A stretch of DNA of 32,000 bases from Vicinamibacteria bacterium (GCA_022820675.1 JAJEFC010000073.1:10330-42329), one strand, 5' to 3'; numbered from the stretch's first letter, positions 9,854-28,585 are shown. The notes: generated from the sequence alone by a model not told the origin. Program-made: numbers and translations.

Positions 9854-9943
9854 GCCGACACCGTCCGGTTGCACTCCTCGCCGAAGGCGTCTCCGCCGGG
9901 CGGGCGGGGGCCGCGGCGACAGACCCCGTTACGCGAGGTCCAA

Positions 9944-11464
9944 GTGAACGTTCGTCTGACGACGCTCCTCCACGACATCCTGACCAGCCGCGTCTACGAC
10001 GTCGCCCGCGAGACCCCCCTCGATCCCGCGGCGGCGCTGTCGAGCCGCCTCGGCAACGCGGTGCTGCTCAAGCGCGAGGACCTGCAGCCGGTGTTCAGCT
10101 TCAAGCTGCGGGGCGCGTACAACAAGATCGCCCATCTCGACGAGGCCGAGCGCGCGCGCGGCATCATCACCGCCAGCGCCGGCAACCACTCGCAGGGCGT
10201 CGCCTGCTCGGCGCGGAAGCTGGGGCTGCGCGCCGCCATCGTCATGCCCGAGACGACCCCCCGCATCAAGGTCGACGCGGTGCGCGCGCTCGGCGCCGAG
10301 GTGGTGCTGCGCGGCGACAGCTACCCCGAGGCGCAGGCCCACTGCGACGGGCTGGCGGCGAAAACCGGCGCGACCTTCATCCATCCCTTCGACGACCCCC
10401 TCGTGATTGCGGGCCAGGGGACGATAGGGGCCGAGATTCTGCGGCACACGCGCCGGCCCGCCGCCGTCTTCGTGCCCGTCGGGGGCGGCGGGCTGATCGC
10501 GGGAATCGCCGGCTACGTCAAGTCGCTGCAGCCCGACGTGCGGGTCGTCGGCGTCGAGCCGTTCGAGGCCGACGCCATGTACCGGGCCCTCGGCGAGGGC
10601 CGGCGCGTGGAGCTCGACCACGTGGGCATCTTCGCCGACGGCGTCGCGGTGCGGAGGGTCGGCGCCCTGCCGTTCGCCATCGCGAAGGACACGGTGGACG
10701 AGATCGTGCGGGTCAGCAACGACGAGACGTGCGCTGCGATCAAGGACATCTTCGACGACACGCGCACGGTGATGGAGCCGGCCGGCGCGCTCGCGGTGGC
10801 GGGGCTCAAGCGGTGGGTGGCCCGGGAGGGCGCGCGCGGCCGGACGCTGGTGGCCGTCGCCAGCGGCGCCAACATCAACTTCGACCGCCTGCGCTTCGTG
10901 GCCGAGCGCGCCGAGGTCGGCGAGGCGCGCGAGGCGCTGCTGGCGGTGACGATTCCCGAACGGCGGGGCGCGTTCCGCGAGTTCTGCGCCACCATCGGCC
11001 GGCGCGTCGTCACCGAGTTCAACTACCGCCTCAGCGACCGGCAGATCGCGCACATCTTCGTGGGGCTGGCCGTCCAGTCGCGCCGCGACGCCAGCGACGT
11101 GGCCCGCCTGCTCTCTGCCCGGGGCTACGAGGTCGAGGACCTCACCGACAACGAGATGGCGAAGCTCCACGTCCGCCACATGGTGGGCGGACGCGCCTCG
11201 GCGGTGCACGACGAACGGCTGTGCCGGTTCGAGTTCCCCGAACGGCCGGGCGCCCTCATCGACTTTCTCGACAAGCTGGCCAACCGGTGGAACATCAGCC
11301 TGTTCCACTACCGCAACCACGGCGCCGACTTCGGCCGGGTGCTGGCCGGGCTCGAGGTGCCCGACGCGGAGACGCCCGACTTCCGGGCGTTTCTCGAAGC
11401 GCTCGGCTATGCCTATACCGTCGAGGCCGACAACCCCGCGTACACGTTCTTCCTGCAGCACTGA
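9944..11464 (+). CDS. ilvA: Threonine ammonia-lyase (biosynthetic threonine dehydratase) with two C-terminal ACT-like regulatory domains
   Basis: The PLP-lysine motif is FSFKLRGAYNK, and GNHSQG and a GGGGL loop are present. The ~506 aa length is consistent with the biosynthetic form. I prefer GTG 9944 (GAGG 5 nt upstream) over the track's ATG 9869, because the extra 25 residues are Pro/Arg-rich and have no homology. Confidence 0.9.
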   Translation: MNVRLTTLLHDILTSRVYDVARETPLDPAAALSSRLGNAVLLKREDLQPVFSFKLRGAYNKIAHLDEAERARGIITASAGNHSQGVACSARKLGLRAAIVMPETTPRIKVDAVRALGAEVVLRGDSYPEAQAHCDGLAAKTGATFIHPFDDPLVIAGQGTIGAEILRHTRRPAAVFVPVGGGGLIAGIAGYVKSLQPDVRVVGVEPFEADAMYRALGEGRRVELDHVGIFADGVAVRRVGALPFAIAKDTVDEIVRVSNDETCAAIKDIFDDTRTVMEPAGALAVAGLKRWVAREGARGRTLVAVASGANINFDRLRFVAERAEVGEAREALLAVTIPERRGAFREFCATIGRRVVTEFNYRLSDRQIAHIFVGLAVQSRRDASDVARLLSARGYEVEDLTDNEMAKLHVRHMVGGRASAVHDERLCRFEFPERPGALIDFLDKLANRWNISLFHYRNHGADFGRVLAGLEVPDAETPDFRAFLEALGYAYTVEADNPAYTFFLQH

Positions 11465-11762
11465 GCGGGCGCGAGACGACACGGTGCCCTCCAAGTGGGT
11501 GCACGTCAGAATTGTTGGGGGCCAGATGGGAGACGGCGCCCGGAACTCCAGCGCGCCGGGTATGCGCTGGACAGCCCCGAGGCCGACGCCACCATCGCCC
11601 TGCGCCGCTGCAAGCTCAGCGACTGCTTCGGGACTTCCGGGAACGACGAGCGGCAAGGGCGCCTGACAGTCATCCCACGAATCTGACGTACACCCCCTCC
11701 AGGTTTGGAGATGGACGCGGGCGTGGCACAAGATGAACCGCATCCGCGGAACTCAGGAGCAG

Positions 11763-14072
11763 ATGATGACAACGCTGTCGGGCTCGAGACATGACATCGG
11801 TCGAATTGTCGCTTCGAACCTGGCGCTCGGCTGCGCGTGGATGATGGGCGCGGTCGCCGCATCCGCGCAGGGCGCCTTTCAGGTCGAGGAAGCCACCATC
11901 GGCGACATTCATCGCGCGATCCGCGGGGGCGAGACGACCTGCGTGCAGGTGGTGGAGGCCTACGTCGAGCGCGCGAGGGCGTACAACGGCGTCTGCACGC
12001 AGCTCGTCACCGCCGACGGCGCACCGGTCGCGCCGGGCCCGGGCGCCGTGCGGGCCGGCGCCCCCATCGAGTTCCCCGCCGCCACCGTGCCGGTGCGCGA
12101 GATTCTGCCCGACTACGACGACTACCGGGGGCGGCCGATCGAGTTCGGCCGGATGGAGCCCACGCGGTCCGACCCGGGCGTCCAGCAGCAGTACGGCATG
12201 GTCGTGGGCATGGCGGGCGCCGGCCAGCTCAACGCGCTGAGCACGCTCAACCTGCGCGGCGAGCGCTCGGTGACCTGCCAGGCCGGGTGCGACGCGCACC
12301 CGTCCGACGGTGCGCTGCCCGCGCACTGCCCCGCCGCGTGCGAGGCGTTCCGGCGACAGCCCGACGCGCTCGAGCGGGCGGCCGAGCTCGACGCGCGGTA
12401 CGGCAGGGACCCCGACCTCGAACGGATGCCGATGTACTGCGCGGCGATCTCGTTCAAGGACGTCTTCGACACCACGGACATGCGTTCGACGAGCGGAGCC
12501 GACACCGCCTATGCGATGGACGCCGCGCCGCGCGACGCGACGGTCGTCGCCGAGCTGCGCGCCAAGGGCGCCATCGTCTACGCCAAGGCCAACCTCTCGG
12601 AGTACAACGCCGGCGGCGGCGACCCGGGGGGCGCCGTCGCCCGATCGCGGACGTTCGGCGCGGGCGTCGCCCGCAGCAGTTGGGCCGGCCCCGCGTGCAA
12701 CGTCTACGACACGGCGCGCGAGCCCGGCGGCTCGAGCTCGGGGTCTGCGGTTTCGGTCGGCGCGAACCTCGCCACCTGCTCGATCTGCTAGGAGACCGGC
12801 GGCTCGTGCCGGCAGCCGGCGTGGCGCAACGGCGTCGTCGGCCTCGTGACGACGAAGGGGCTCGTGCCCTACGGCGGATCGACCGGCGTCGAGCCCTACC
12901 TCGACCGGGGAGGCATCAACTGCCGCACCGTCGAGGACGCCGCCCGCGTGCTCGACGCGCTCCGGAACCCCGACCGCGGCTTCCACGACCCGCGCGACAT
13001 CTACGCCGCGCTGCCGCGCGCGCTGGTCCCCGAGGCGCCCTACGCGAGCTTCGTCGTCGACGCCGAGGCGGCCGGGGCCAGACCGCTCGCCGGCGTCCGC
13101 ATCGGCGTGGTGCGCGAGTACATGGTGAAGCACACCGCCAACGACGCCGCGGCGAGCGATCTCGTCAACGGGGAGATCCTGCGCGTGCTGCGCGACGAGC
13201 TCGGCGCGGAGATGGTGGAGTCGTCCGACCCGGCGTATCCGGACGACCCGTCGATCCCGAACATGGCGTACGACTTCCACCGGGCGATAGCCGAGATCCT
13301 GCCCGTCCACATGCCCGAGTACATCCAGGCCAGGGACGCTGGCGGCGAGTATCGGTTCGCGGTGCCGGGTCACGACGTGACCAGCCGCGACTATCTCGTG
13401 AGGGCGGCCGAGGGCATCGTGCCGCTGTCGGCCGACCTGAACCTCCGCAGCATCAACCGCTCGCCGCGCACCCTGAGCTTCAGCTTTCACCTGGCCCAGT
13501 ACCTGATGCGCCGCGGCGACGCCGCGGTGACCGACTGGGCGAGCCTGAACGCCAACTCGAAGTACTACAGCGAGCGCCGCGCGGTGGCGATGCGCAACTG
13601 GGAGAACGCCCGCGACATCCGCTCGGCCGGCATCACCCGGCGCGTGAGGATGCGCGAGGTCATGCGGCTCGTCCTCCTCAACGTGCTGCACCGGAACGAC
13701 CTCGACGTGCTCGTCAACCCCACGATCACGGTGCCCCCGGTGCGAATCGGCTACGCCGGGGAACCGTCGGTCAACGACCGTCCGACCGGCCGGTTTCCCA
13801 CGAGCGCGAACCTCGGCATTCCGGAGATAACGGTGCCGGCCGGCTTCAACCGGATCGTCTACGACCCCGAGTACGTGCTGAACGACGACCGGGACGGCTA
13901 CGACAACGTCACCGGCAGCCGCCGGACGGAGCTCGACGCCGCGCTCCCGGTCGGCGTCTCGTTCTGGGCGGGCCCCGGCGACGAGCCCATCGTCCTGCGC
14001 GTCGCGTCGGCCTACGAAGCGGCCACGAAGCACCGCCGGCCGCCGCCGGACTTCGGACCTGTGGACCGATGA
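11763..14072 (+). pseudogene. Secreted amidase-signature (AS) family amidase, interrupted by a single in-frame TAG at 12789-12791
   Basis: Track ORFs 11733-12791 and 12846-14072 are in the same frame (12792 to 12846 is 54 nt). Read through, the sequence is GGSSSGSAVSVGANLATCSIC-TAG-ETGGSCRQPAWRNGVVGLVTTKGLVPYGG, which is the AS signature with the nucleophile Ser (GGS) after the TAG. The catalytic Lys lies in ISFKDVFDT. A signal peptide is present, and AGGAG precedes ATG 11763/11766. Confidence 0.8.
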
Positions 14073-15217: not shown

Positions 15218-15609
15218 GTCCAGCCGCAACGGAGTACGGCGCCTCGCCCGAAATCATTCCGGTTTCCGGACCCGGGTGACGCGGCATGGCTTCCGCGCCC
15301 TCCGGCGAGTCGCCCTCCCGTCGAGAGCCCGCGGGCCACGACAGCCCGCGTCCCGGGTCCGTCCTCCAGGGGTTGAGCCCGGCCAAGGAGGAAGAGCCCC
15401 CTCCCCCGCGTCGGCACTTCGAGGCGTTTCGGGCGCAGCCATGAGACGATGCTCACCGACCGAGAAGCGGTGGCGGCCGTTCTGGCCGATACCTCATGGG
15501 CCGGTCGTCGGCGCCCTGCGATGAACGAAGCCGGTCGACCGCACGTCCAATCGGGCACGGAGCAGGAACGAAACGGGGGGCGCGGGGTCCAAACGTCCCG
15601 GGGGAAGAG

Positions 15610-18600
15610 ATGCGCTACTTCACCGCTACGCTGACGCTGCTGGTCTCGCTGGCGGCAACGCCCGTCCTGGCCCAGATCGACGCCCGGATGCTGCGCCATC
15701 CCGACGTCTCCGAGACGCAGATCGCCTTCGTCTACGCGGGCGACATCTGGGTGGTCGCCAAGGAGGGCGGCTCGGCCCGCAAGCTGAGCTCGCCGCCCGG
15801 GGAAGAGTCCTTCCCGCGGTTCTCGCCCGACGGCAAGCAGATCGCCTTCAGCGGCAACTACCACGGCAACACCGACGTCTACGTCGTCCCGACCCTGGGC
15901 GGCGCGCCGTTCCGCATCACGCACCATCCGGGCGGAGACCGGGTCCTCGACTGGACGCCGGACGGCCGCGGCGTCCTCCTCGCCTCCAACCGGCGGAGCG
16001 GCCTGGCCGCCTTCCGGCAGATCTACCGCGTCGCCGTCGAGGGCGGTCAGCCCGAGCGGCTCGCCGTGCCGTACGGGGAGTTCGGCACGCTGTCGCCCGA
16101 CGGGCGGCGCATCGCCTACACCCCCGAGACCCGCGGGTTCCGCACCTGGAAGCGCTACCGGGGCGGGGCCGCACCCGAGATCTGGCTCCTCGATCTCGAG
16201 ACGCTCGACGCCGAGAACGTCAGCGACAGCCCCGCCAACGACGCCCAGCCGATGTGGCACGACGACACGCTGTATTTCCTCTCCGATCGCGGGCCGGCCC
16301 AGCGATACAACATCTGGGCCCACGACCTGACGACCGGCGCGAAGCGGCAGGTGACCACCTTCACCGACTTCGACATCACATTCCCCGCCATCGGGCCGTC
16401 GGACCTCGTCTTCCAGGCCGGGGGCCGGCTCTTTCGCATGGACCTCGCCACGGAGCGGGTCGCGGAGGTCGCAGTCGACGTCGTGACCGATCTGGCCGCC
16501 CTCGTCCCGCGCACCGCGGACGTGGCGAGCCGCATCACGTCGGCGGGAATCTCGCCGACCGGGCAGCGCGCGGTGTTCGAGGCGCGGGGCGAGATCTTCA
16601 CGGTCCCCGCCCGGCACGGCGCGGTTCGGAACCTGACGCATTCGTCGGGCGCGGCAGATCGATTCCCGGCCTGGTCGCCGGACGGCCGGTGGATCGCCTC
16701 GTGGAGCGACAGCGGGGGCGAGTACGAGCTGACGCTGCATCGGGCCGACGGCACCGGCGAGCCGCAGGTCGTGACCGCGCTCGGGCCGGGGTTCCGCTAC
16801 CGGCCGTTCTGGGCCCCCGACAGCACCAGGCTCGCCTTCATCGACCACACGCAGCGCATCCACGTCTTCGACCGCGAGACCGAGGCGCTGACCGAGGTCG
16901 ACCGCGGGCTGCACATGCTCCATAACGCGCTGGCCGGCTTCGAGCTGAGCTGGTCGCACGACAGCCGCTGGCTCGCCTGGTCCCGAGGGCTCGAGACCAC
17001 CAACAGCGCCATCTTCCTCTTCGATACCGAAGCCGGCGAGCGGTTCCAGGTGACCTCCGGCTACTACAACGACTTCCGGCCCGTCTTCGACCCGGCCGGG
17101 AAGCACCTCTACTACTACTCGAACCGGACCCTCGCTCCGGTCTATTCCGATCTCGACGCCACCTGGGTCTACCCCAACGCGACGAACATCGTGGCCGCGA
17201 CCCTGCGCGACGACGTGCCGTCCCCCCTCGCGCCCCGCAACGACGAGGAGCCCGTCGCGGAGGACGACGACGAGGACGAGCCCGGCGAGGGCGAGCCCGG
17301 CGAAGAGGCGGCCGGGGAAGCGGACGACTCCGGGCCCGAGTCGGACGAGGACGACGCCGGCCCGGCGCCGCTCGACATCGACGTCGACGGCTTCGAGGGC
17401 CGAGCCGTGATGCTGCCGGTCGAGGCCGGGAACTTCGGCCGCCTGCGGGCGGTCGACGGCAAGGTCGTCTTCCACCGCAGGCCGCACGCCGGCGGCGCCG
17501 GCGACCAGCCGAGCCCCATCGTCGCCTGGGACCTCGAGGAACGGGAGGAGCAGACCATCCTGCCCGACGGCGACAGCTTCGAGATCTCGGCGGACGGCAG
17601 GAAGCTGCTCGTGTCGAACGAGCGAGCGTGGGCGATCGTCGACGTCGCGCCGGGACAGACGCTGGAGAACCGCCTGGCCACCAACGCGCTGACGATGACG
17701 CTCGACCCGCCGGCCGAGTGGCGGCAGATGTTCGACGAGGTGTGGCGCACCTACCGGGACTACTTCTACGACGACGACCTCCACGGCCTCGACTGGCACG
17801 GACTGCGGGCGCAGTACGGCGGCCTGGTCGACCAGGCGGTCACGCGCTGGGACGTCAACTTCCTCATCGGCGAGCTCATCGGCGAGGTCAACGCGTCGCA
17901 CACCTACGTCGGCGGGGGCGACACCGAGACGCCGCGCCGGCGCGGCGTCGGCCTGCTCGGCGTCGACTGGTCGCTGGAGAACGGCGCCTACCGCATCGCC
18001 CGCATCGTGCGGGGCGCCGCCTGGGACATCGAGGACCGGTCTCCCCTCGACGAGCCCGGCGTCGACGTCGACGAGGGGGACTACGTGCTCGCGGTCAACG
18101 GGAACCCCCTCGACCCCGCGCGCGACCCGTACTCGGCCTTCGAGGGGCTGGCGGGCGAGACCGTCCTCCTCACCGTGAACGACCGGCCGACGACCGACGG
18201 CGCCCGCGAGGTCGTCGTGACGACGCTCACGAACGAGGCGACGCTCCGCATGCGGAACTGGATCGAGCAGAACCGCCTGCGTGTCGACGAGGCGTCCGGC
18301 GGCCGCATCGGCTACGTGTACGTGCCGAACACGGCGGTCCCCGGCCAGACCGAGCTCGTGCGGCAGTTCAACCACCAGCACGCCAGGGACGGGCTGATCA
18401 TCGACGAGCGGTGGAACGGCGGCGGTCAGTTGCCCGACCGCTTCGTCGAGTTGATGAACCGCGAGACCGTCGGCCACATCTACTTCCGGCACGGCGCGAC
18501 CGCGCGTCACCCCACCATCACCCACCGCGGCCACAAGGCGATGCTCATCAACGGCCAGGCCGGCTCGGGCGGCGACGCGTTCCCGTGGTTCTTCCGCGAG

Positions 18601-18936
18601 ATGGACGCGGGCGTCCTCGTGGGCGAGCGCACGTGGGGCGGCCTCATCGGCCCCGCCTCGGGACACCAGCTCATCGACGGCGGCTTCTACACGGCCCCGC
18701 CCGGACGGCTCTACCGGAACGACGGCCAGTGGTTCGCGGAGGGCCACGGGGTCGAGCCGGACATCCCGGTGACGGACCACCCGGGCGAGCTCGCCAAGGG
18801 GAACGACCCGCAACTCGACGCCGCGGTTGCGGAGCTCATGCGCCGCATCCGGGAGGATCCCCCGGCTCTGCCTGCGCCGCCCGCTGACGAGCGGCGGGTC
18901 GTCACCGACTCTAACGGCGAGAACGGGGACCGTTAG
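15610..18936 (+). CDS. Tricorn-type protease homologue (PD40/beta-propeller repeats, PDZ and S41 peptidase domain), secreted
   Basis: The start is ATG 15610, an internal start of the track ORF. A signal peptide is present. The N-terminus is LRHPDVSETQIAFVYAGDIWVV...FPRFSPDGKQIAFSG. The S41 region is IGYVYVPN...GLIIDERWNGGGQ and NGQAGSGGDAF. The gene ends in TAG. Confidence 0.9.
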   Translation: MRYFTATLTLLVSLAATPVLAQIDARMLRHPDVSETQIAFVYAGDIWVVAKEGGSARKLSSPPGEESFPRFSPDGKQIAFSGNYHGNTDVYVVPTLGGAPFRITHHPGGDRVLDWTPDGRGVLLASNRRSGLAAFRQIYRVAVEGGQPERLAVPYGEFGTLSPDGRRIAYTPETRGFRTWKRYRGGAAPEIWLLDLETLDAENVSDSPANDAQPMWHDDTLYFLSDRGPAQRYNIWAHDLTTGAKRQVTTFTDFDITFPAIGPSDLVFQAGGRLFRMDLATERVAEVAVDVVTDLAALVPRTADVASRITSAGISPTGQRAVFEARGEIFTVPARHGAVRNLTHSSGAADRFPAWSPDGRWIASWSDSGGEYELTLHRADGTGEPQVVTALGPGFRYRPFWAPDSTRLAFIDHTQRIHVFDRETEALTEVDRGLHMLHNALAGFELSWSHDSRWLAWSRGLETTNSAIFLFDTEAGERFQVTSGYYNDFRPVFDPAGKHLYYYSNRTLAPVYSDLDATWVYPNATNIVAATLRDDVPSPLAPRNDEEPVAEDDDEDEPGEGEPGEEAAGEADDSGPESDEDDAGPAPLDIDVDGFEGRAVMLPVEAGNFGRLRAVDGKVVFHRRPHAGGAGDQPSPIVAWDLEEREEQTILPDGDSFEISADGRKLLVSNERAWAIVDVAPGQTLENRLATNALTMTLDPPAEWRQMFDEVWRTYRDYFYDDDLHGLDWHGLRAQYGGLVDQAVTRWDVNFLIGELIGEVNASHTYVGGGDTETPRRRGVGLLGVDWSLENGAYRIARIVRGAAWDIEDRSPLDEPGVDVDEGDYVLAVNGNPLDPARDPYSAFEGLAGETVLLTVNDRPTTDGAREVVVTTLTNEATLRMRNWIEQNRLRVDEASGGRIGYVYVPNTAVPGQTELVRQFNHQHARDGLIIDERWNGGGQLPDRFVELMNRETVGHIYFRHGATARHPTITHRGHKAMLINGQAGSGGDAFPWFFREMDAGVLVGERTWGGLIGPASGHQLIDGGFYTAPPGRLYRNDGQWFAEGHGVEPDIPVTDHPGELAKGNDPQLDAAVAELMRRIREDPPALPAPPADERRVVTDSNGENGDR

Positions 18937-19347
18937 CTGGACGCGGGTCCACCTGCGCAGGTTGGGGCGGATCACCTCGCGCCGGGAAATACGCGTGTCG
19001 TTGATCGAGCAGGGATCGCTGGATCCCCCTCGGTCCCTGCCCGGCCCGCGTGGCTTGTCTTGTCCGGCCGCGCGAGTGCTCTACAGTACCCGTGCGCCCT
19101 CCAAGGTCCCCGGCACGTTGACGTCAACGCACCTCTGCGCCGCCCCGGCGTGGGCAATTCCTGCACCCGCCGTTCTCCGCCACCAGCTCGTTCGCATGCA
19201 ACTCGGGCCGTTCCGCGTTGGCCCCGTTCTTGCTCCGTGAAGCACCTCGTCAACGGCCCGCCGGCCCGGGTTGCCCCCGCAACCCGCCGCGCGCCGCACG
19301 CCCCGCACGACGCAGGAGGTGGACTCCGGACGCCGCCAGGAGCGCGA

Positions 19348-20421
19348 ATGCACGACCCCGCCTACAAGCTCTTGTTCTCGCGCCCGCGCATGGTCCGCGA
19401 CCTGCTCGACGGCTTCGCCGCCCGAAGCTGGAGCGGCCTCCTAGACTTCGAGTCGCTGGCCCCCCTCCCCGCCAGCTTCGTCGGCCGAGAGCTCCAGCAG
19501 CGCCACGGCGACCTCATCTGGCGCGTCCGCTTCCGCGGCGACCGATGGCTCTACCTGGTCCTGCTCCTCGAGTTCCAGTCCACCGTCGACCCGGCGATGG
19601 CGGTCCGCATCCTGGAGTACACCGCCCTGCTCTACCGGCGGCTGGTCGACCACGACGTGCTCCGAGAACACGGGGCCCTGACGCCGGTGCTGCCGGTCGT
19701 CCTCTACAACGGCCGACGGCGGTGGACGGCGCCGGTCGACGTGACGAGCCTGCTGGCGGCTGAGAGCGACACTCTGGCGCGGTACCAGCCGTCGCAGCGA
19801 TACTATGTCCTGGACGTGGCGCGCGCGGCGGACGCCGACCTGCCGGCGGGCAACCTGGTGTCGGCGCTCATCGGTCTGGAGAAGACGCGCGACGCGACGG
19901 GCCTGCGCGGGGCGCTGAAGGCGCTGTTCGACCTTCTGCGGCAACAGAAGGACGGCGCGTTGACGCGGGCGTTCCTGACGTGGCTGCGCCACGGGTTGCG
20001 GCATGCGGGCCGGCTGCCGGCAGACGGGGACCATCCGTTGGCGCAGTTGCGGGAGACGCAGACGATGCTGGAAGAGACCGTGCGGGAATGGACGCAGGAA
20101 TGGCTCGAGCAGGGCCGTGCCCAAGGCATGGAGAAGGGCATCGAGCAGGGCCGCGCCCAAGGCATCGAGCAGGGTCGCGCCCAAGGCATCGAGCAGGGCC
20201 GTGCCCAAGGCATCGAGCAGGGCCGCAGCGAAGAGCGGGCGCTGCTCTGCCGCCAAGCAGCCCGGAAGTTCGATACCGGGACCGCCGAGGGACTGGCCGC
20301 CGCCCTGGCCGGCGTCACCGACCCGGACCGCCTTGCGCGCGTCGGCGACTGGATCATCGAGTGCGCGACGGCGTCGGACCTGCTGGACCTAGTCCACGGC
20401 GAAAACGGGTCGGTAGGCTGA
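19348..20421 (+). CDS. Rpn-family recombination-promoting nuclease/putative transposase (PD-(D/E)XK N-domain, DUF4351-like C-domain), full-length copy A
   Basis: AGGAG lies 5 nt before ATG 19348. The motifs are DLIWRVRF...LYLVLLLEFQS (the D...E.Q nuclease motif), ...LPVVLYNG and a GIEQGRAQ repeat block. The C-terminus is LLCRQAARKFD...LARVGDWIIECATASDLL. Confidence 0.85.
   Translation: MHDPAYKLLFSRPRMVRDLLDGFAARSWSGLLDFESLAPLPASFVGRELQQRHGDLIWRVRFRGDRWLYLVLLLEFQSTVDPAMAVRILEYTALLYRRLVDHDVLREHGALTPVLPVVLYNGRRRWTAPVDVTSLLAAESDTLARYQPSQRYYVLDVARAADADLPAGNLVSALIGLEKTRDATGLRGALKALFDLLRQQKDGALTRAFLTWLRHGLRHAGRLPADGDHPLAQLRETQTMLEETVREWTQEWLEQGRAQGMEKGIEQGRAQGIEQGRAQGIEQGRAQGIEQGRSEERALLCRQAARKFDTGTAEGLAAALAGVTDPDRLARVGDWIIECATASDLLDLVHGENGSVG
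20104..20232. repeat. In-frame 24-bp tandem repeat (ggcatcgagcagggccgcgcccaa; GIEQGRAQ) within Rpn copy A
   Basis: Four near-perfect 24-bp units lie at 20137-20232, with degenerate units upstream. The paralogue has a shorter array at about 23391-23483. Confidence 0.85.
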
Positions 20422-20600: not shown

Positions 20601-20861
20601 ATGCGCGAGCGAAGCATCGGGATTCAGGAACTCCAGGCGAACCTGAGCCGTTGCCTCGACGAGGTTCGGCGCGGCACGACTCTTCTCCTGACGGACGGCG
20701 AGCGTCGGGTGGCTCGCCTCATCCCGGAGCCGGACACCAGCGCCTTGCGGGGCGGACTTCCCATCGCCTGGAGCGGACGTCGGTTGAAGGAGACCAAGCC
20801 GAGGGCCCGGCTGCGCGGCGGAGGCAGCATGGCTGACATCGTCAGGGAGAACCGCCGGTGA
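20601..20861 (+). CDS. Type II antitoxin, Phd/YefM-like (VapB-position partner of the PIN toxin)
   Basis: The RBS GGAAGGAGGGAGGG precedes ATG 20601. The N-terminus IGIQELQANLSRCLDEVRRGTTLLLTDGERRVARLIP fits the Phd/YefM N-terminal pattern. It overlaps the next gene by 4 nt (GTGA). Confidence 0.75.
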   Translation: MRERSIGIQELQANLSRCLDEVRRGTTLLLTDGERRVARLIPEPDTSALRGGLPIAWSGRRLKETKPRARLRGGGSMADIVRENRR

Positions 20862-21298
20862 CGCTGCTCTACCTGGACACGAGCGCCCTGTTCAAGCGCT
20901 ACGTCGAGGAGGCCGAGTCGGAGGCGCTGCTCGACCGGATCGAAGACGCCCCGGCCGTGGGCACCGCCTTGATCACGCGGGTCGAGGTGGCTGCGGCGCT
21001 GGCGAAGGCGGTGCGTGATGATCGTATGCCGTCCTCGGAAGCGCGCGAGGCCGAGAGCGATTTCCTCGGCGACTGGGCCGACTTCACCAGAATCGGATTG
21101 ACGGACGATGTGGCGGGGCGCGCAGGTCGCCTCGCGTGGAAGCACGACCTGCGAGGCTACGACGCCGCGCAGTTGGCGGCCGCACTCGCATGGCGCGATG
21201 CGACCGAAGACGCGGAGGACCAGGTCGTGTTCGCTTGCTTCGACAACGATCTGCGCCGGGCGGCTGCGGCGGAAGGCCTCGAGACGTGGCCGGCATGA
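20858..21298 (+). CDS. vapC: PIN-domain toxin (VapC family)
   Basis: The GTG start overlaps the antitoxin stop. The sequence LYLDTSALFKRY...TRVEVAAAL...YDAAQLAAAL...FDNDL carries the PIN acidic residues (D, E, D, D) in the usual order. Confidence 0.85.
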   Translation: MTLLYLDTSALFKRYVEEAESEALLDRIEDAPAVGTALITRVEVAAALAKAVRDDRMPSSEAREAESDFLGDWADFTRIGLTDDVAGRAGRLAWKHDLRGYDAAQLAAALAWRDATEDAEDQVVFACFDNDLRRAAAAEGLETWPA

Positions 21299-21451: not shown

Positions 21452-22498
21452 TCAGAACGTGGCAATGGGGTTGATCGGCGACCCGGTGCCGCGCGTGGGC
21501 AGCGGCGCCGCCGTCAGCAGGAACTCGTAGCGGTTCAGCGAGGCGGCCACCTCGCCCACGGCCTCGAGGTCCAGATTGTCGAACAGCGGCATTCCCAGGT
21601 AGATGAGCGCGAACCGGTGGAGCGGCCGGGGACCGAGGTCGTCCGCCGCCGTGACGGCCGGGTCCGCGTCGGCCGGCGCCATGTCCTGGGCCGCCTCGCC
21701 GCCCAGTATCGCGATGTCGCGCTCGCTGAGCCACGGGATGACCGACGCGTGCAGTCCGGCCGCCGCGCTGGCCACGTCCCAGGGGCCGACCTCGGCACGC
21801 CGGGCCCAGCGGCCGGTGCGGATGACCACCACGTCGCCGGCGGAGACGGTCACGCCCGTCGCCGCCTCCCAGGCCTCGATGTCCTCGACGTGGATCGGCG
21901 TGCCCGGCTCCAGGTACGGCACGTTGCGGAACCGCGCCATGTCGATCAGCACGCCCCGCGTGACGATGCCCGACTTGGCGTTGTGCACGGTGTTCCTGGC
22001 GTGGCCGCCGCGGGCCGCGACCTCGGCGGGGTCGGGCCGGTAGTCGTTGTAGGTCACGCCGTCGCCGATGAAGTTGTGGTTCAGGAAGTCGAGGTGGGTG
22101 TGGATGAACCCGTGGTACGCGATCCGGATCTCGTCGGCGGTGATCCCGAGCGGGGTGACCTGATACGGCCGCGGGCCGTCGATCGTCGCCTCGGTCTCGG
22201 CGTCGCGCGCGAGCGAGACGGAGATGCCCTCCCGCACGAGGGTGGCCGCCTGCCTGCGCTTCTCCGGCGTGATGAGGTTCAGGGTGCCCCTCTCGTCGTC
22301 GGCGCCCCACCGGCCCCAGTTCGACAGCTCCTGCTTCCACCGCTCGACATCCGCCTGCGTGACCCGCTGGCCGCCGGCTGATGCCGAGCCCGGCTGGAAG
22401 CCCAGGGAGCGGACGGTCTGCCCGAGCAACGGCACCGCGACGACGCCCGCCAGCGCGACGACGGCAGCCAGACTCGATCGTCTCTTGGTCGTTCCCAT
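21452..22498 (-). CDS. Cyclase-family protein (kynurenine formamidase-like fold), secreted
   Basis: GGGAGGG lies 4 nt before ATG 22498 and a signal peptide is present. The motifs are NWGRWGADDERGTLN, the His cluster HGFIHTHLD and VVIRTGRW. Confidence 0.85.
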   Translation of the reverse strand: MGTTKRRSSLAAVVALAGVVAVPLLGQTVRSLGFQPGSASAGGQRVTQADVERWKQELSNWGRWGADDERGTLNLITPEKRRQAATLVREGISVSLARDAETEATIDGPRPYQVTPLGITADEIRIAYHGFIHTHLDFLNHNFIGDGVTYNDYRPDPAEVAARGGHARNTVHNAKSGIVTRGVLIDMARFRNVPYLEPGTPIHVEDIEAWEAATGVTVSAGDVVVIRTGRWARRAEVGPWDVASAAAGLHASVIPWLSERDIAILGGEAAQDMAPADADPAVTAADDLGPRPLHRFALIYLGMPLFDNLDLEAVGEVAASLNRYEFLLTAAPLPTRGTGSPINPIATF

Positions 22499-22670
22499 TG
22501 ATCCCTCCCTGGTGCCGCTCCGTGGTCATCGCGGCTCCGCGACCCGGAGCCCGAGACGTTCCTCCGCCGATCGGATCGGGCCATCGAAAGGTTCCCGGTC
22601 CCGCGTGCCTCACTCCGCGAGGCACGGCCTGATGATAGTCCGTCCGCCGGTTCGCTCAGCGCGTCGTCAG

Positions 22671-22750
22671 CATCGACCAGCGCAGTGCGGGCGCGAACGC
22701 ACAGCGGGCCAGGACCGCCAGACGTGCTCGTTCCTCGCCATCCACGCCAG
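22671..22750. repeat. About 80-bp unit (copy 1) bordering the truncated Rpn copy; second copy at 23746-23825
   Basis: c(a/g)tcga(c/g)cagcgc(a/g)gtgcgggcgcgaac...caggaccgcc(a/g)gac(g/a)tgctcg(t/c)tcctcgccatccacgccag. On the minus strand the unit carries an RBS plus the first ~20 codons of a gene (MSGGPDLLQVRARTALLDA). In this copy the ATG is ACG. Confidence 0.8.
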
Positions 22751-22751
22751 C

Positions 22752-23672
22752 ATGCCCGCCAGCTTCGTCGGCCGAGAACTGCAGCAGCGCCACGGCGACC
22801 TCATCTGGCGCGTCCGCTTCCGCGACGACCGCTGGCTCTACCTGGTCCTGCTCCTCGAGTTCCAGTCCACCGTCGACCCGGCGATGGCGGTGCGCATCCT
22901 GGAGTACACCGCGCTGCTCTACCGGCGGCTGGTCGACCACGACGTGCTCCGAGAACACGGGGCCCTGCCGCCGGTGCTGCCGGTCGTCCTCTACAACGGC
23001 CGGCGGCGGTGGACGGCGCCGGTCGAGGTGACCAACCTGCTGGCGGTGGGGCGCGACGTGCTGGCGCCGTACCAGCCGTCGCAGCGATACCATGTTCTGG
23101 ACGTGGCGCGCGCGGCGGACGCCGACCTGCCGGCGGGCAACTTGGTCTCTGCGCTCATCGGCCTGGAGAAAACGCGCGACGCGGCGGGCCTGCGCGGTGC
23201 GCTGAAGGCGCTGTTCGACCTTCTGCGGCAACAGAAGGACGGCGCGTTGACGCGGGCGTTCATGACGTGGCTGCGCCACGGGCTGCGGCATGCGGGCCGG
23301 CTGCCGGCAGACGGGGAGGACCCGTTGGCGCAGTTGCAGGAGACGCAGACGATGCTGGAAGAGACCGTGCGGGAATGGACGCGGGAATGGCTCGAGCAGG
23401 GCCGCGCCCAAGGCATCGAGCAGGGCCGCGCCCAAGGCATCGAGCAGGGGCGCGTCCAGGGCATCGAGCAGGCCCGCCACGAAGAGCGGGCGCTGCTCTG
23501 CCGTCTGGCGGCCCGGAAGTTCGATGACGGGGCCGCCGAGAGACTGGCCGCCGCCCTGGCCGGCGTCACCGACCCGGACCGCCTTGCGCGCGTCGGGGAC
23601 TGGATCATCGAGTGCGCGACGGCGTCGGACCTGCTGGCCCGCGTCCGCGGCGACAACGGGCCGGGTGGCTGA
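22752..23672 (+). pseudogene. Rpn-family nuclease/putative transposase, 5'-truncated copy B (lacks about 45 N-terminal codons)
   Basis: It is near-identical to copy A from PASFVGRELQQRHGDLIWRVRF onward. Homology starts abruptly at 22755. There is no SD before the fortuitous ATG 22752. The D...EFQ motif is retained. Confidence 0.75.
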
Positions 23673-24497: not shown

Positions 24498-24671
24498 CGC
24501 AGGCATGGGAGCAGGCACACGTGCCCCGGCGCGGACCAGACGGGTGCCCCGTTGCGGTTCGCCGCACAGAACGCGCTCGTGCTCGAGCGCGGCGTGCTGT
24601 CGATCACGCCCGACGGCCGCTACGACATGGCGATCCCGTCGATGGCCCGGTGGCTGGCAGGCGAACGGTGA
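24498..24671 (+). pseudogene. 3' remnant of a paralogue of the downstream P-loop NTPase gene
   Basis: It reads ...CPGADQTGAPLRFAAQNALVLERGVLSITPDGRYDMAIPSMARWLAGER*. This is nearly identical to the C-terminus of 24668-25879 (FAAALVERGVLSITPDGRYDVAIPSMARWLAAGTR*). Its TGA overlaps the GTG start of the intact gene (GTGA). Confidence 0.6.
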
Positions 24672-25879
24672 GCACCGACGCCGGGACGCGGTGGCATCGC
24701 GCGTATACTCGCCCCGTGGGCTTCGATTCCGAGTTGGCGCGAGCGCTTCTGGAGGAAGTCGACCGCGACACGGCCGCGTTCTTCGCCGGCCGTCGCGCGG
24801 AGATCCAGCGGTTCGACGAGGCGCTTCGCACGGTGGAGCGCCGCTTCGAGGGCAACGAGCGCGCCCTGTTCCTCGTCTACCAGGGCGCGCCGGGCTGCGG
24901 CAAGACCTCGCTGGTCTCCCATCTGCGGAAAGCCCGCCCGGAGGAGATCGGGCTGCTCGTCAACGTCCAGCCTTCGGATTTGGCGAGCGTCTCCGCGCTG
25001 ACCGAGCAGGTGCGCCGCACGGCGGAGGATGCCGGTCCGGCGGGCAGCCGGGTGGCGGCCCGTTTCGCGCAGGCGCTGGCCTCCTACCTGCGCATGGGTG
25101 GTTCCGGCGCCGAACTGCGCAGCCTCATGGCGGACCGCACGGCCAGGCGGGCCAAGGTCGTGCTGCATCTGGACGAAGCCCAGGTCATCGACGAGTCGGC
25201 CAAGGCGGGCCTCTTGATGCTGCACACGCGGGGCCTCGGCGCGCCGTGCGTCTTCCTGTTCACGGGCCTGAGCCACACGGCGCAGCGGATCGACACCGTC
25301 AGGGGCGGGTCGCAGGCCGGGGAGAACACCGTCTTCAACATGGGCGCGATGGCCGCCGAGGAGTGCGCCGAGTCGACCGCGATGATGCTCGCCGCGCTCG
25401 GCGCGGGTGGCGGCGACGCGGAGAAGGACCGGGCGGCGGGGCTGGCCGCGGAGCTGTCGTACGGCTGGCCCCAGCATCTGCACATCGCCCAGACGGCCCT
25501 GTGCCGCGAGCTGCTGCGGACGGACGGGACGCTGCGGGGCATCGACTCGGACCGGGTGCGGACCGAATCGGACCGGCGCCGCCACGATTACTACGCCAAG
25601 AGGCTGTCCGGCTCCGTCCTCGGCCTGCGGCCGTCGTTCACGGCCGCCGTCGTCGCCCGGGTGACGGCGCTGCGGCCGCACGACTGGCTCACGCTGGCCG
25701 ACCTGTGCGAGGACGAGCTGCAACAGTCGGGTCTGGCCGCCAACCCGAACTTCGACGCCACCTCGGGCGAGTTCGCCGCCGCGCTGGTCGAGCGCGGCGT
25801 GCTGTCGATCACGCCCGACGGCCGCTACGACGTGGCGATTCCGTCGATGGCCCGCTGGCTGGCGGCGGGTACGCGTTGA
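24668..25879 (+). CDS. P-loop NTPase (AAA_16/Arch_ATPase-like, STAND-like) with a C-terminal winged-helix-like tail
   Basis: The start is GTG 24668, internal to the track ORF. The motifs are FAGRRAEIQRFDEAL, Walker A GAPGCGKTS and Walker B VVLHLDEAQ. Confidence 0.75.
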   Translation: MSTDAGTRWHRAYTRPVGFDSELARALLEEVDRDTAAFFAGRRAEIQRFDEALRTVERRFEGNERALFLVYQGAPGCGKTSLVSHLRKARPEEIGLLVNVQPSDLASVSALTEQVRRTAEDAGPAGSRVAARFAQALASYLRMGGSGAELRSLMADRTARRAKVVLHLDEAQVIDESAKAGLLMLHTRGLGAPCVFLFTGLSHTAQRIDTVRGGSQAGENTVFNMGAMAAEECAESTAMMLAALGAGGGDAEKDRAAGLAAELSYGWPQHLHIAQTALCRELLRTDGTLRGIDSDRVRTESDRRRHDYYAKRLSGSVLGLRPSFTAAVVARVTALRPHDWLTLADLCEDELQQSGLAANPNFDATSGEFAAALVERGVLSITPDGRYDVAIPSMARWLAAGTR

Positions 25880-26084: not shown

Positions 26085-27530
26085 ATGACGACGACGCGAG
26101 ACCGGCGGCGGACGTTTCCCTGGCAGATCGTGCTCACCACGGCGGTCGCGGCCCTCGCCGCGATGCCCGCCCCGGCCGCGGCGCAGGCCGCGGCCACCGA
26201 CGAGGTCACCTTCACCCGCGACATCGCCCCGATCCTCCAGCGGAGCTGTCAGAAGTGCCATCAGCCCAACTCGCTGGCGCCGATGTCGCTCATCGACTAC
26301 GAGGAGGTGCGGCCCTGGGCTCGCGCCATCAAGCTGCGCACGGGGCTGCGCGACAAGCCGGGGGTGATGCCCCCGTGGTACATCGAGAAGGACATCGGCA
26401 TCCAGCGGTTCAAGGACGACCCGTCGCTGAGCGACGAGGAGGTCGCCCTGATCGCGCGGTGGGCCGACAACGGCGCGCCGCGGGGGAATCCCGCCGACCT
26501 GCCCCCGCCGGTGCCGTTCATCGACGTCGACCAGTGGGAGATCGGGCAGCCCGACCTGATCGTGTCGTCGCCGAGCTTCGAGGTGGCGGGTGACGCGCCC
26601 GACTGGTGGGGCTCGATCGGCGAGGTGCCGACGGGGCTGACCGAAGACCGCTACGTCGCCGCGATGGAGTACAAGGAGGTCACCGAGTCGAGCGTGGGCG
26701 AGACCCGCAACACGGTGGGCGGCCTCTTCGTGGTACACCACGCCACCCTCGGCGTCACCGACCCCGACCCCGACCCGAACGAGGACGATCCGCTGGCCGC
26801 GCAGCGCCGCTGGCCGACCCACGAGGTGGGGCGCAACGCCGACGTCTTCGACCCCGAGGCGGGCAAGATCATGAAGGCGGGGTCGAATCTGCAGTTCAAC
26901 TCGATGCACCTGCACGCGAACGGGGCGGACACGCGGGCCCACCTCGACGTCGGGTTCAAGTTCCATCCCCGCGGCTACGAGCCGACCCGGAAGTGGGTGC
27001 GGATGTCGTTCGGCAACGGCGTCGACCTCGACATCGAGGCGATGGACCCCGACCAGCAGGCGGAGGCGTACTTCACCCTGCCGGAGAACACGCTGATCAC
27101 CATCTTCGAGCCCCACATGCACGCGCCCGGCGTGCGCATGTGCCTCGACGCCATCTGGGGGCACAACGTCCAGACCCTGAACTGCGCCGGCTACGACCAC
27201 AGTTGGGTGCGGGTCTACAACTACGCCGACGACGCGGCGCCCCTGCTGCCGAAGGGCACCATCCTCAGGATGACCGGCTACTTCAACAACTCGCCGTCGA
27301 ACCCCAACGTGCCCGATCCGCGCAACTGGTCGGGCGGCGGACACCGCTCGGTCGACCAGATGTTCATCAACCTGATGCGCGGGGTCTACCTGACCGACGA
27401 GGAGTTCGCGGCCGAGATGGCGAAGCGGCGCGAGGCCCTCGAGCTGGCCGACGGCGAGGTGGTCCTCGGCTGTCCGCTCTGCGGAACGCTGAAGCTGGCG
27501 CCGGCCGAGAACGCCGGAGGCGGACAGTGA
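26085..27530 (+). CDS. Secreted haem-c (CxxCH) domain fused to a PHM/DBH-like copper monooxygenase fold (cassette copy B)
   Basis: GAGGAGG lies 5 nt before the ATG. The motifs are FTRDIAPILQRSCQKCH, then HH 218/219, H277 (SMHLH), HxH 344/346 (EPHMHAPG) and M426 (VDQM). An extra C-terminal CPLC is present. Confidence 0.8.
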   Translation: MTTTRDRRRTFPWQIVLTTAVAALAAMPAPAAAQAAATDEVTFTRDIAPILQRSCQKCHQPNSLAPMSLIDYEEVRPWARAIKLRTGLRDKPGVMPPWYIEKDIGIQRFKDDPSLSDEEVALIARWADNGAPRGNPADLPPPVPFIDVDQWEIGQPDLIVSSPSFEVAGDAPDWWGSIGEVPTGLTEDRYVAAMEYKEVTESSVGETRNTVGGLFVVHHATLGVTDPDPDPNEDDPLAAQRRWPTHEVGRNADVFDPEAGKIMKAGSNLQFNSMHLHANGADTRAHLDVGFKFHPRGYEPTRKWVRMSFGNGVDLDIEAMDPDQQAEAYFTLPENTLITIFEPHMHAPGVRMCLDAIWGHNVQTLNCAGYDHSWVRVYNYADDAAPLLPKGTILRMTGYFNNSPSNPNVPDPRNWSGGGHRSVDQMFINLMRGVYLTDEEFAAEMAKRREALELADGEVVLGCPLCGTLKLAPAENAGGGQ

Positions 27531-27542
27531 GAGCCGTAGCCG

Positions 27543-27680
27543 GGCGCGGCGGGACACTCGAAGACCGCCGGATGCGCGGTGGTCCGCTTCGCAAGACGCT
27601 GAGAGGCCGGGCCGGCGGCGGGGCTCTCGAAGACCGCCCGATACGCGGCGGTCCGCTCCGCGGGACGGTGAGGACCCCGG
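27543..27680. repeat. Two tandem ~69-nt units, each with a 7-bp-stem hairpin, between cassette-B genes
   Basis: The core ctcgaagaccgcc(g/c)gat(g/a)cgcgg(t/c)ggtccgct(t/c)cgc occurs at 27557-27592 and 27626-27661. The stem is GACCGCC/GGCGGTC in unit 2 and GACCGCC/GGTGGTC (a G-U wobble) in unit 1. Confidence 0.75.
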
Positions 27681-28585
27681 CCGGCCGCGGCAGGGCCCTT
27701 TCGGCGACGGCCGTACTCCTCGCCGGGCTGCTCGTCGTCCTCGCCGTCCAGGACGCGGACGCGCAGGGCTCGCGCCGCGCCTACGACTTCGGCCAGGAGG
27801 TGGTGCCGGCCTACGAGGGCTGGGAGCAGAACCCGGACGGCTCGTTCAACCTGGTGTTCGGGACGATGAACCGGAACTGGGAGGAAGAGCTGCACATCCC
27901 CGTCGGCCCCGACAACAACATCGAGCCCGGGGGACCCGACCAGGGGCAGCCGACGTGGTTCCTGCCGCGGCGGAACCGGTTCCTCTTCCGCATCCGGGTC
28001 CCGGCCGACTTCGGCGCCAAGGAGCTGGTGTGGACGCTCACCAGCCACGGCGAGACGAAGCGCGCCTACGGCACCCTGAAGCCCGACTACTACATGGACG
28101 ACAACGTCCGCATGGCCAACAACGGGGCCGGCGTCTCCGGCGAGCTGTTCAAGAACGTGGCCCCGACGCTCGAGATCCGCGGCGAGTCGACCCGCACCGT
28201 GAAGGCCAACACGCCGGTCACGCTGACCGCGGTCGCGCACGACGAGGACGAGCTGCCGAGGCGGCGGGGCATGCGCCCCGTGGACCCGGGCCGGCCCACG
28301 AGCCTGACGCCAATCGCCGCAACCGGCCTCCGGCTCTCCTGGTTCGTCTACCGGGGGGCCGTGCCGGTGACCTTCGATCCGGTGCAGACCAAGGTGTGGG
28401 AGGACACGCGGGCCAACTCGAACTCGCCGTGGGGCGCGGGCTGGGAGACGCCCGACCCGCCCCCGGACAACGAGTGGGTCGTGCAGGCGACCTTCACCGA
28501 GCCTGGCACCTACGTGCTCCGGTGCATCGCCCACGACGGCGGGCTCGCGACCTACGAGGACGTCACTTTCGTGGTGACGGAGTGA
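27668..28585 (+). CDS. Secreted partner protein of cassette B, long form with an extra C-terminal Ig/PKD-like domain
   Basis: This is the C-terminal part of the artefactual track ORF 26606-28585. I prefer GTG 27668 because it gives a normal signal peptide (RALSATAVLLAGLLVVLAVQDADAQG). The alternative is ATG 27572. The N-domain is homologous to 6555-7043. The C-terminus ...VTLTAVAHDEDE...GTYVLRCIAHDGGLATYEDVTFVVTE is Ig-like. Confidence 0.7.
   Translation: MRTPAGRGRALSATAVLLAGLLVVLAVQDADAQGSRRAYDFGQEVVPAYEGWEQNPDGSFNLVFGTMNRNWEEELHIPVGPDNNIEPGGPDQGQPTWFLPRRNRFLFRIRVPADFGAKELVWTLTSHGETKRAYGTLKPDYYMDDNVRMANNGAGVSGELFKNVAPTLEIRGESTRTVKANTPVTLTAVAHDEDELPRRRGMRPVDPGRPTSLTPIAATGLRLSWFVYRGAVPVTFDPVQTKVWEDTRANSNSPWGAGWETPDPPPDNEWVVQATFTEPGTYVLRCIAHDGGLATYEDVTFVVTE

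Follow-up and report, generated by a model that had tools for sequence, protein, structure and literature searches.

A predicted haem-copper monooxygenase and its Ig-like partner in a Vicinamibacteria genome are ordinary members of a large, uncharacterised family

Results

Layout of cassette B

We analysed a 32,000-nucleotide stretch of DNA from Vicinamibacteria bacterium (GCA_022820675.1, JAJEFC010000073.1:10330-42329), hereafter called the window, which carries two cassettes that each join a putative haem-copper enzyme gene to the gene of a partner protein. The subject of this study is cassette B, a two-gene region on the plus strand (26085-28585) in which the gene for enzyme B (26085-27530, 481 residues) is followed, in another reading frame, by the gene for partner B, which ends at 28585. 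The window has a GC content of 71%, and genuine genes are recognisable in it by a GC content at third codon positions (GC3) above 0.9; the open reading frame of enzyme B is intact, has a GC3 of 0.94, and encodes a predicted signal peptide, a c-type haem domain, a two-sandwich PHM-like copper domain, and a C-terminal CxxC tail. Cassette A, which we used for comparison, lies about 21 kb upstream on the same strand and consists of enzyme A (5258-6550, 430 residues) and partner A (6555-7043, 162 residues, with an N-domain only), the two genes being separated by 4 nucleotides. In pairwise comparisons, the two enzymes are 38% identical over their full length (E = 1e-84) and the two partners 35% identical over 116 residues (E = 4e-12), a match that covers the whole mature part of partner A and the N-terminal half alone of partner B. 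These results confirm the second, diverged cassette described in an earlier reading of the sequence alone (the sequence-only reading). Cassette B is intact and comes from the Vicinamibacterales (Acidobacteriota), a soil lineage.

Haem and copper motifs of enzyme B are conserved across the family

To follow the motifs of enzyme B through its relatives, we used an alignment of 240 homologues from the database, of which 120 are B-type and 120 A-type. The predicted Sec-type signal peptide, as read from the sequence, occupies positions 26085-26189 (MTTTRDRRRTFPW...AAAQA). The haem c attachment motif CQKCH (26247-26261; C55, C58, and H59) is kept in 119 of the 120 B-type and 117 of the 120 A-type proteins, the remainder being gaps, and the M95 residue of a downstream MPPW motif (26367-26378) is invariant in all 240; because of what is known of class I c-type cytochromes, M95 is the likely distal haem ligand. 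The predicted signal peptide, the conserved CxxCH, and the MPPW methionine would suit this class, but the Pfam cytochrome c matches are weak for both enzyme copies (15 bits for Cytochrome_CBB3 against a cutoff of 27), and the haem domain is modelled with low confidence.

The copper domain contains six putative ligands. H218 and H219 (26736-26741), together with H275 in the H275-L-H277 motif (26907-26915), would bind CuH, while H344 and H346 in the H344-M-H346 motif (27114-27122), together with M426 (27360-27362), would bind CuM. The ligand histidines are invariant in 240 of 240 homologues, and the methionine is kept in 119 of the 120 B-type and in all 120 A-type proteins. The order and context of the motifs (VVHH, LxLH, PHMH, and DxM) we take to be those of the CuH and CuM sites of PHM, an equivalence drawn from motif order and spacing, and the region of copy A that is equivalent to H344-M-H346 matches Pfam Cu2_monoox_C. 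The statement of the sequence-only reading that copy B keeps the CxxCH and all six putative copper ligands therefore holds, and apart from a few gaps they are invariant across the whole alignment.

Several additional residues (W243, H246, H277, C353, C367, H372, C463, and C466) are invariant in all 120 B-type proteins. W243 and H246 belong to a B-clade motif, WPxHEVGRN, that follows a variable acidic loop (26754-26837; TDPDPD...WPTHEVGRN), the place where an insertion had been supposed. H277, a conserved histidine beyond the six ligands, is also kept in 98 of the 120 A-type homologues. The C463-P-L-C466 motif (27471-27482), the C-terminal cysteine pair already noticed in copy B, is absent from the A-type proteins.

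The predicted fold of enzyme B matches PHM and DBH

The AlphaFold2 model of enzyme B has a predicted local distance difference test (pLDDT) score of 64.7 overall and is good in the beta-sandwich core. When the model was compared with the PDB by Foldseek, the top 30 matches were PHM (1phm, 1sdw, 3mll, and others) and human DBH (4zel), with E-values of 1e-7 to 1e-5 and a probability of 1.00. At the sequence level, copy A reaches Pfam Cu2_monoox_C (PF03712) with 23.3 bits against a cutoff of 23, and in precomputed annotation PF03712 is assigned to a minority of the A-like homologues and to none of the listed B-type homologues. NCBIfam gave no match for any of the four cassette proteins, and PDB sequence searches with enzyme B, the A1 profile, enzyme A, and the partner profile returned chance-level matches only. 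The sole part of a profile to touch a solved structure was the stretch F-x-x-D-(I/V)-x-P-I-L-x-x-x-C-x-x-C-H, which met residues 640-665 of HzsA at a sub-threshold E-value of 0.9. From its motifs and its model, we assign enzyme B as a predicted secreted c-type cytochrome fused to a PHM/DBH-type non-coupled binuclear copper domain.

Cassette B belongs to the largest clade of the family

At least 8000 homologues of enzyme B were listed, and the best 120, which we inspected, are 67-96% identical to it, 460-520 residues long, and annotated at most as "cytochrome c". Besides at least 8000 B-type proteins, the family has about 4900 that are A-like, and its partners number at least 6800. The relatives of enzyme A form a tight group of 77-97% identity; a broad set from Blastocatellia and Vicinamibacterales follows at 50-58%, and some of its members carry PF03712 or the name "copper type II ascorbate-dependent monooxygenase-like". 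We also scanned one genome per GTDB species, confirmed 535 loci, and kept 80 of them (L-numbers below). All 80 are from Vicinamibacterales or other Acidobacteriota, and the closest enzymes are 97-98% identical to enzyme B.

Average-linkage clustering, at 50% divergence, of 95 enzymes taken with their neighbours from these loci gave a B clade of 80 enzymes, with a two-domain partner that is encoded immediately downstream in 76 and a CxxC tail in 79 of the 80. The CxxC tail is missing from all other groups, which are a third clade of eight enzymes, about 45% identical to enzyme A, whose two-domain partner is encoded upstream; the A clade of four enzymes, whose downstream partner extends 120-125 residues after a YxGW motif; a further clade of two enzymes with no adjacent partner; and a single enzyme (L030), 45% identical to enzyme B, with a two-domain partner downstream. 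The B clade is the largest and most conserved clade of the family, and the A clade is small and distant. The third type of cassette, with its partner gene upstream of the enzyme gene, was seen in L045, L046, L052, L060, L064, L066, and L069 (minus strand, about 8300-13300), often a few kilobases from a B-type cassette.

Orthologues of A and of B are each found at 84-98% identity in other Vicinamibacterales genomes, and A and B fall in separate clusters. Together with the 38% identity between the two enzymes, this agrees with the earlier view that the cassettes do not stem from a recent duplication, and by these comparisons A and B are best described as old, separately conserved paralogues. Of the accompanying proposal of sub-functionalisation, the old, co-evolving paralogous cassettes hold up, the example of different substrates finds no support here, and the picture of two copies that share out one function is too narrow, since single genomes hold five to six or more cassettes (for example, CBDCCO010000007.1 and CBDBMV010000002.1 carry five each, and isolate 3187d3cd carries six), often in tandem (L024, L030, L054, and L059).

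Against this background, most of the traits that had been listed as peculiar to copy B take on a different meaning. The interval from the HH to the third histidine is 56 residues in B and 58 in A, so that there is no net insertion; instead the segment has diverged, the B-type conserving a Trp and a His where the A-type conserves a Leu and a Tyr or Arg. The 51 residues by which enzyme B exceeds enzyme A are distributed as 13 before the HH, 6 in the haem domain, and 32 in the C-terminal tail. The supposed lineage-specific additions, namely the WPxHEVGRN motif, Cys353/Cys367, and the C-terminal CxxC, are invariant across the B clade with its at least 8000 homologues, and as judged from the alignment they are characters that define this clade.

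The Arg-rich n-region of enzyme B, which had been offered as a hint of export by the twin-arginine (Tat) pathway, fared no better. Its RRR is common to the nearest relatives only, other orthologues having NRCRAF, DPWRKF, TRSCY, or KVTWNKGK at this place, and none of the TAT-signal models in Pfam and NCBIfam, which recognise a motif of the form S/T-R-R-x-F-L-K, matched enzyme B at E <= 1. Maturation of c-type haem proteins depends on Sec and Ccm. A Tat leader was rejected on these grounds, and the Sec route is expected for enzyme B because its haem would need to be attached in the periplasm.

The partner is a predicted two-domain Ig-like protein

Partner B most likely has 352 residues (27527-28585), counted from a GTG that overlaps the TGA stop codon of the enzyme gene; an alternative start at GTG 27668 would give 305 residues. 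The hydrophobic core of its signal peptide and an ADA-Q cleavage region, both read from the sequence, lie at 27695-27763 and are homologous to the short leaders of relatives, such as VRAAGARGRILPATVVLLAGLL in L007. The N-domain (27791-28147) is a beta-sandwich common to partner A, and the C-domain (28160-28582; ...GTYVLRCIAHDGGL...) is an Ig-like beta-sandwich in the AlphaFold2 model. This model is confident for the C-terminal sandwich only, with strands reaching pLDDT values of 96-97, and at about 55-60 the N-domain is modelled too poorly for its fold to be assigned alone. Taken whole, the model matches tandem Ig modules of myomesin, basigin, the S-layer protein SbsC, and invasin. The at least 6800 homologues of partner B, which are about 290-310 residues long, have no Pfam domain or name. 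The sequence-only reading had described a longer partner with a C-terminal Ig- or PKD-like domain; partner B is indeed about twice as long as partner A, and the Ig-like sandwich is modelled with confidence, but the PKD part is not upheld, as neither PKD model (PF00801 and PF18911) nor any other Pfam model matched partner B at E <= 1.

With partner A as the query, an exhaustive phmmer search returned 864 relatives at the level of 50% clusters, and the shared N-domain is repeated three to seven times in tandem in proteins of 500-3500 residues (P0364, P0370, P0399, P0407, and others). The other domains of six tandem-repeat proteins that we scanned are DUF11, Ig, SpaA-like, laminin-G, and TSP3. 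The N-domain is thus a generic surface beta-sandwich module. It has no Pfam family and seems to be an undescribed surface beta-sandwich repeat.

The supposed spacer most likely encodes part of the partner signal peptide

The enzyme B gene ends in ...GGAGGCGGACAGTGA, and its TGA stop codon is overlapped by GTG 27527 (GTGA), which is in frame with the partner and 141 nucleotides, or 47 codons, upstream of GTG 27668. A Shine-Dalgarno-like GGAGG (27516-27520), again read from the sequence, lies inside the 3' end of the enzyme gene, 6 nucleotides upstream of GTG 27527. This GGAGG is kept at the junction in the closest relatives, and distant relatives with a GTGA junction show degenerate G-rich variants such as GGGGG and GGGAG.

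The 137 nucleotides between the enzyme stop codon and GTG 27668 had been called a structured spacer. Their minimum free energy of folding is -67.9 kcal/mol, compared with -70.3 +/- 3.7 kcal/mol for dinucleotide shuffles (z = +0.64), and the search of Rfam showed no credible family in this stretch, the sole match, to RF02804 (E 0.51), scoring 19.8 bits where the gathering score is 46. With folding no better than that of shuffles, no Rfam family, and a sequence that is absent from or different in relatives, a structured or regulatory RNA was rejected. No promoter-like site and no plus-strand terminator were found around the cassette; a single terminator-like match on the minus strand (27940-27920) is within the expectation from shuffles. 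In place of a structured spacer, we found a tandem duplication in frame with GTG 27527. Two 69-nucleotide units of 23 codons each (27546-27614 and 27615-27683), 81% identical to one another, would encode an Arg/Gly-rich expansion of the signal-peptide n-region. The window has no other copy of the units, and of the 80 loci just L001 and L002 have them; a repeated mobile element was rejected as their origin because they are confined to this one junction and to these two loci. With 23 invariant columns, the 3' half of the unit bears a weak similarity to the end of the enzyme gene that encodes CPLC, and this suggests that the units may be slipped duplications of the gene junction, although the similarity is too weak to be sure.

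The junctions of other loci bear on where the partner starts. In L005 and L010, for instance, which do not have the duplication, a partner with a short signal peptide (VRALAVV...) begins exactly at the GTGA. All 32 loci that have an (A/G)TGA junction keep the partner in the frame of the overlapping start codon, at 16 different distances from 101 to 317 nucleotides, while in loci where the enzyme ends in TAG, TAA, or a TGA without an overlapping start codon, frames 0, 1, and 2 are found in 14, 20, and 7 cases. The closest database homologue, P0121, is called at 352 residues, the length from GTG 27527. From these comparisons, the partner most likely starts at GTG 27527, and the spacer would encode a recent expansion of the n-region that is removed on export.

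Two points weigh against this start codon: an n-region of 55 residues is unusually long, and the conservation of frame could partly reflect duplicated units whose length is a multiple of three. One may then hold that the 137 nucleotides are a true non-coding spacer and that translation begins at GTG 27668, the homologue of the ancestral start, with the upstream copies of the junction left as untranslated debris. The peptide from 27668 onward (VRTPAGRGRALSATAVLL) is in fact homologous to the entire short leader that relatives such as L007 begin at the junction, a degenerate copy of the junction closes each 69-nucleotide unit, and open frames are common in DNA of 71% GC. We nevertheless regard a start at 27668 as unlikely, since the overlapping-start frame is kept at all 16 distinct spacings, the strong GGAGG precedes 27527 and not 27668, and gene callers picked the 352-residue form.

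Enzyme and partner co-evolve

The distances among enzymes and among their partners are strongly congruent, with a Mantel r of 0.94 over 72 pairs and of 0.89 within the B clade, and none of 2000 permutations reached the observed value. The ratio of nonsynonymous to synonymous substitution rates (dN/dS) relative to orthologues is 0.12-0.22 for both genes, which are thus under purifying selection. The sequence-only reading had named incongruent histories of enzyme and partner, or loss of the copper ligands in B orthologues, as signs that it was wrong; neither was seen, the ligands being retained in the 120 B-type homologues, gaps aside.

The idea that copy B had added a domain to its partner does not hold, since two-domain partners occur in the B clade, in the third clade, and among the A-like partners at about 50% identity. 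The latter range from 160 to 386 residues, and one of 265 residues starts a second domain homologous to that of partner B. Because the two-domain form is present in several clades, it is probably ancestral, and the 162-residue partner of copy A would be a derived truncation.

Genomic context of the cassettes

The conserved order around cassette B is a cyclase gene (minus strand), enzyme B, partner B, a DRL-type oxidoreductase gene (minus), a PhyH gene (minus), and a cupin gene (plus). In L006, L009, and L011 (about 7870-10420), an A cassette of 86-90% identity lies immediately downstream of partner B; in L004, only a fragment of enzyme A is left downstream of the B cassette (8479-9177), and in L006, the two parts of partner A are about 2 kb apart. 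In L010 (1-3369), the beta-lactamase-family and DUF5916 genes adjoin with no A cassette between them, while in the window the A cassette sits between these two genes. By this gene order, the A cassette has been relocated in the lineage of the window. The interval from A to B contains two YhgA/Rpn-like Transposase_31 genes (19060-20421 and 22224-23672) as well as a PIN gene and an AAA ATPase gene (20858-21298 and 24521-25879), and Transposase_31-type genes are likely to drive the local rearrangements. In relatives, the region immediately ahead of enzyme B carries Transposase_31 copies or fragments whose number varies.

Recurrent neighbours, each present in 13-17 of the 80 loci, are PSCyt/PSD (DUF1592-type) proteins with DUF1552, pyrroloquinoline quinone (PQQ) dehydrogenases with a cytochrome c domain, DUF5916/CBM9-like proteins, cyclases, glyoxalase-fold proteins, and ankyrin-repeat proteins. 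Such neighbours point to periplasmic redox metabolism. In the window, a DUF5916 protein is encoded after cassette A (7442-9853); some relatives add a CBM9-like domain, and the family is found near cassettes in 13 of the 80 loci. Between the cassettes lies a large gene for a Tricorn-protease-like protein with PD40 repeats, Tricorn C1, PDZ, and peptidase S41 domains (15496-18936).

Two genes of the window are split by in-frame TAG codons, one for a GCV_T-type aminomethyltransferase (29-1333, TAG at 1070-1072) and the other for an amidase (11733-14072, TAG at 12789-12791). Both codons stand within CTAGG, a sequence with no third occurrence on the plus strand of the window. The B enzyme of L002 likewise has a TAG (6952-6954; ATCTAGGCG) where the window has GAG (ATCGAGGCG). 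These codons could be a motif-specific GAG-to-TAG error of assembly or base calling, or the genes could be genuine pseudogenes.

Discussion

The results reported above show that cassette B, far from being a copy with local embellishments, is an ordinary member of a family that is very large, conserved, and uncharacterised. As a whole, the cassette is best explained as a translationally coupled operon of a haem-copper monooxygenase and an Ig-like partner, an ordinary representative of the B clade, and we consider this explanation probable.

The nearest known system is that of PHM and DBH, the copper type II ascorbate-dependent monooxygenases, which in eukaryotes make amidated peptides and catecholamines and, to our knowledge, are known almost only from eukaryotes. 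Their two-beta-sandwich fold is the best PDB match of enzyme B, and enzyme B has the same ligand pattern, HH...H for CuH and HxH...M for CuM. It differs from them in being bacterial and, as predicted, periplasmic, in its sequence (about 10% identity to PHM, below Pfam thresholds), in the extra invariant His and Cys residues and the C-terminal CxxC of its clade, and in having a dedicated Ig-like partner gene. It further carries a predicted covalent haem c domain at its N terminus in place of the dependence on ascorbate or cytochrome b561, and this fused haem, as deduced from its attachment motif, argues for an electron donor other than ascorbate. The haem domain has the F-x-x-D motif given above in common with planctomycete-type cytochrome c (PSCyt1, PF07635) and the haem domain of the hydrazine synthase alpha subunit; these matches are sub-threshold, and enzyme B joins the module to a copper domain instead of PSD or DUF1592-type domains. 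Haem modules that feed single electrons to an extracytoplasmic mononuclear copper O2 site are known from cellobiose dehydrogenase (CDH), which supplies LPMOs, and from DOMON-cytochrome b561 proteins of the DBH family. Enzyme B may be likened to these by the logic of its electron supply, as an analogy only, for its haem is c-type and covalent, its copper fold is another, and both are in one chain. Partner B, for its part, resembles the tandem Ig modules of bacterial surface proteins (invasin/intimin, S-layer SbsC, and DUF11-repeat proteins) that its model matched, but it is small, stand-alone, predicted to be secreted, and translationally coupled to an enzyme, and it has no Pfam family.

We propose that enzyme B is exported by Sec and receives its haem from Ccm in the periplasm. 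The N-terminal His/Met c-type haem would take electrons from the periplasmic respiratory chain and pass them one at a time to CuH (H218, H219, and H275) and then to CuM (H344, H346, and M426), the transfer from haem to CuH replacing the ascorbate or cytochrome b561 of the animal enzymes. CuM would then activate O2 and hydroxylate a C-H bond of a periplasmic or extracellular substrate. The partner would be a secreted, non-catalytic protein of two Ig-like beta-sandwiches, probably in a stoichiometric complex with the enzyme as a substrate-binding or scaffolding subunit. In the B clade, the CxxC and the invariant His and Cys residues beyond the ligands may together make up one more site, for redox chemistry or metal handling.

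A number of observations weigh against this proposal. The AlphaFold2 models are mediocre (pLDDT 64.7 and 60.1), the TM-score of the enzyme B model to PHM is about 0.5, and the ligands were equated with those of PHM by motif order and spacing. Enzyme B has no sequence-level match in the PDB and no match to a copper-monooxygenase model of Pfam or NCBIfam (PF01082 and PF03712 included) at E <= 1. The extra invariant residues of the B clade (H246, H277, H372, C353, C367, C463, and C466) could point to an altered metal site or a further one, and to another chemistry. Nor is the partner an absolute requirement, as five B-type enzymes that are 82-87% identical to copy B (L014-L018, downstream of 7449) have no adjacent partner, the gene after the enzyme in L014 being convergent on the minus strand. 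The neighbourhoods of the 80 loci are heterogeneous and indicate no substrate or pathway, and we found nothing relevant in the experimental literature on bacterial PHM/DBH-like or cytochrome-fused copper monooxygenases, or on Acidobacteria with this family.

Three other explanations of the cassette have to be weighed. The sequence-only reading saw in copy B a locally elaborated duplicate that had gained a Tat-type leader, an insertion, a CxxC pair, an Ig domain on its partner, and a structured spacer, and that had split its function with A. Copy B is longer than copy A and has the listed residues, and the adjacent A and B cassettes of L006, L009, and L011 fit a shared history. This view is already largely refuted and seems to us very improbable, given features that are invariant across a clade of at least 8000 homologues, the missing net insertion, an RR that is neither conserved nor matched by a TAT model in an enzyme whose haem c maturation would depend on Sec and Ccm, two-domain partners in several clades, and a spacer that is neither structured nor conserved. 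The partner, alternatively, might not be a subunit at all; it could be the protein substrate of the enzyme, in a PHM-type reaction or one of the kind that makes ribosomally synthesised and post-translationally modified peptides, or a chaperone that delivers copper. Tight co-inheritance and co-evolution would be equally expected in these cases, and PHM itself acts on peptides, yet we think such a role decidedly unlikely. The C-termini of the partners are variable and not Gly-extended; the invariant residues of partner B include no cluster of Cys, His, or Met that could bind metal; the protein is a predicted folded one of two Ig domains with a generic surface module at its N terminus; and the enzyme itself bears the CxxC, a candidate for handling Cu(I).

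The chemistry, too, could be different. Enzyme B may have kept the PHM fold without being a C-H hydroxylase, and may act as a haem-copper electron-transfer protein or oxidase, handle peroxide or superoxide, or work on nitrogen or sulphur oxyanions. This would suit the further His and Cys residues (H246, H277, H372, C353, and C367) that the B clade keeps invariant close to the CuH segment, the recurrent periplasmic redox neighbours (PQQ dehydrogenase with cytochrome c, and PSCyt/DUF1552), and one homologue that its source names "alkyl hydroperoxide reductase". Such names are automatic annotations, however, and all six ligands of the non-coupled CuH/CuM pair, the CuM methionine included, are strictly kept over deep divergence. 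Strict retention of these ligands is a hallmark of the O2-activating chemistry of PHM and DBH, so that we judge a non-hydroxylase unlikely and favour the coupled haem-copper monooxygenase operon.

The value of the analysis of cassette B is corrective: B is the standard form, its apparent spacer is most likely a coding duplication in a signal peptide, and A is probably the unusual, reduced form. Cassette B is typical of an uncharacterised variant of the PHM/DBH kind of copper monooxygenase, in a family that we regard as moderately interesting overall. More speculatively, and as a possibility that we rate somewhat below even, the cassettes may stand for a class of prokaryotic non-coupled binuclear copper monooxygenases that is large and unstudied. 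Such enzymes would be connected directly to the respiratory chain by their fused cytochrome c and would pair, as working heterodimers, with an Ig-like subunit that binds the substrate. The expansion of paralogues in soil Vicinamibacteria would then serve the oxidative attack on diverse extracellular organic compounds, as a functional analogue of the LPMO/CDH system, and a third site for metal handling could come from the CxxC tail of the B clade and its additional invariant His and Cys residues. If this is true, a bacterial family of thousands, with both copper sites, a cytochrome c, and a co-evolving partner, would offer a natural system in which to study the electron route to CuH, and it could reveal new oxidative chemistry in a soil lineage that is among the most abundant and the least cultured.

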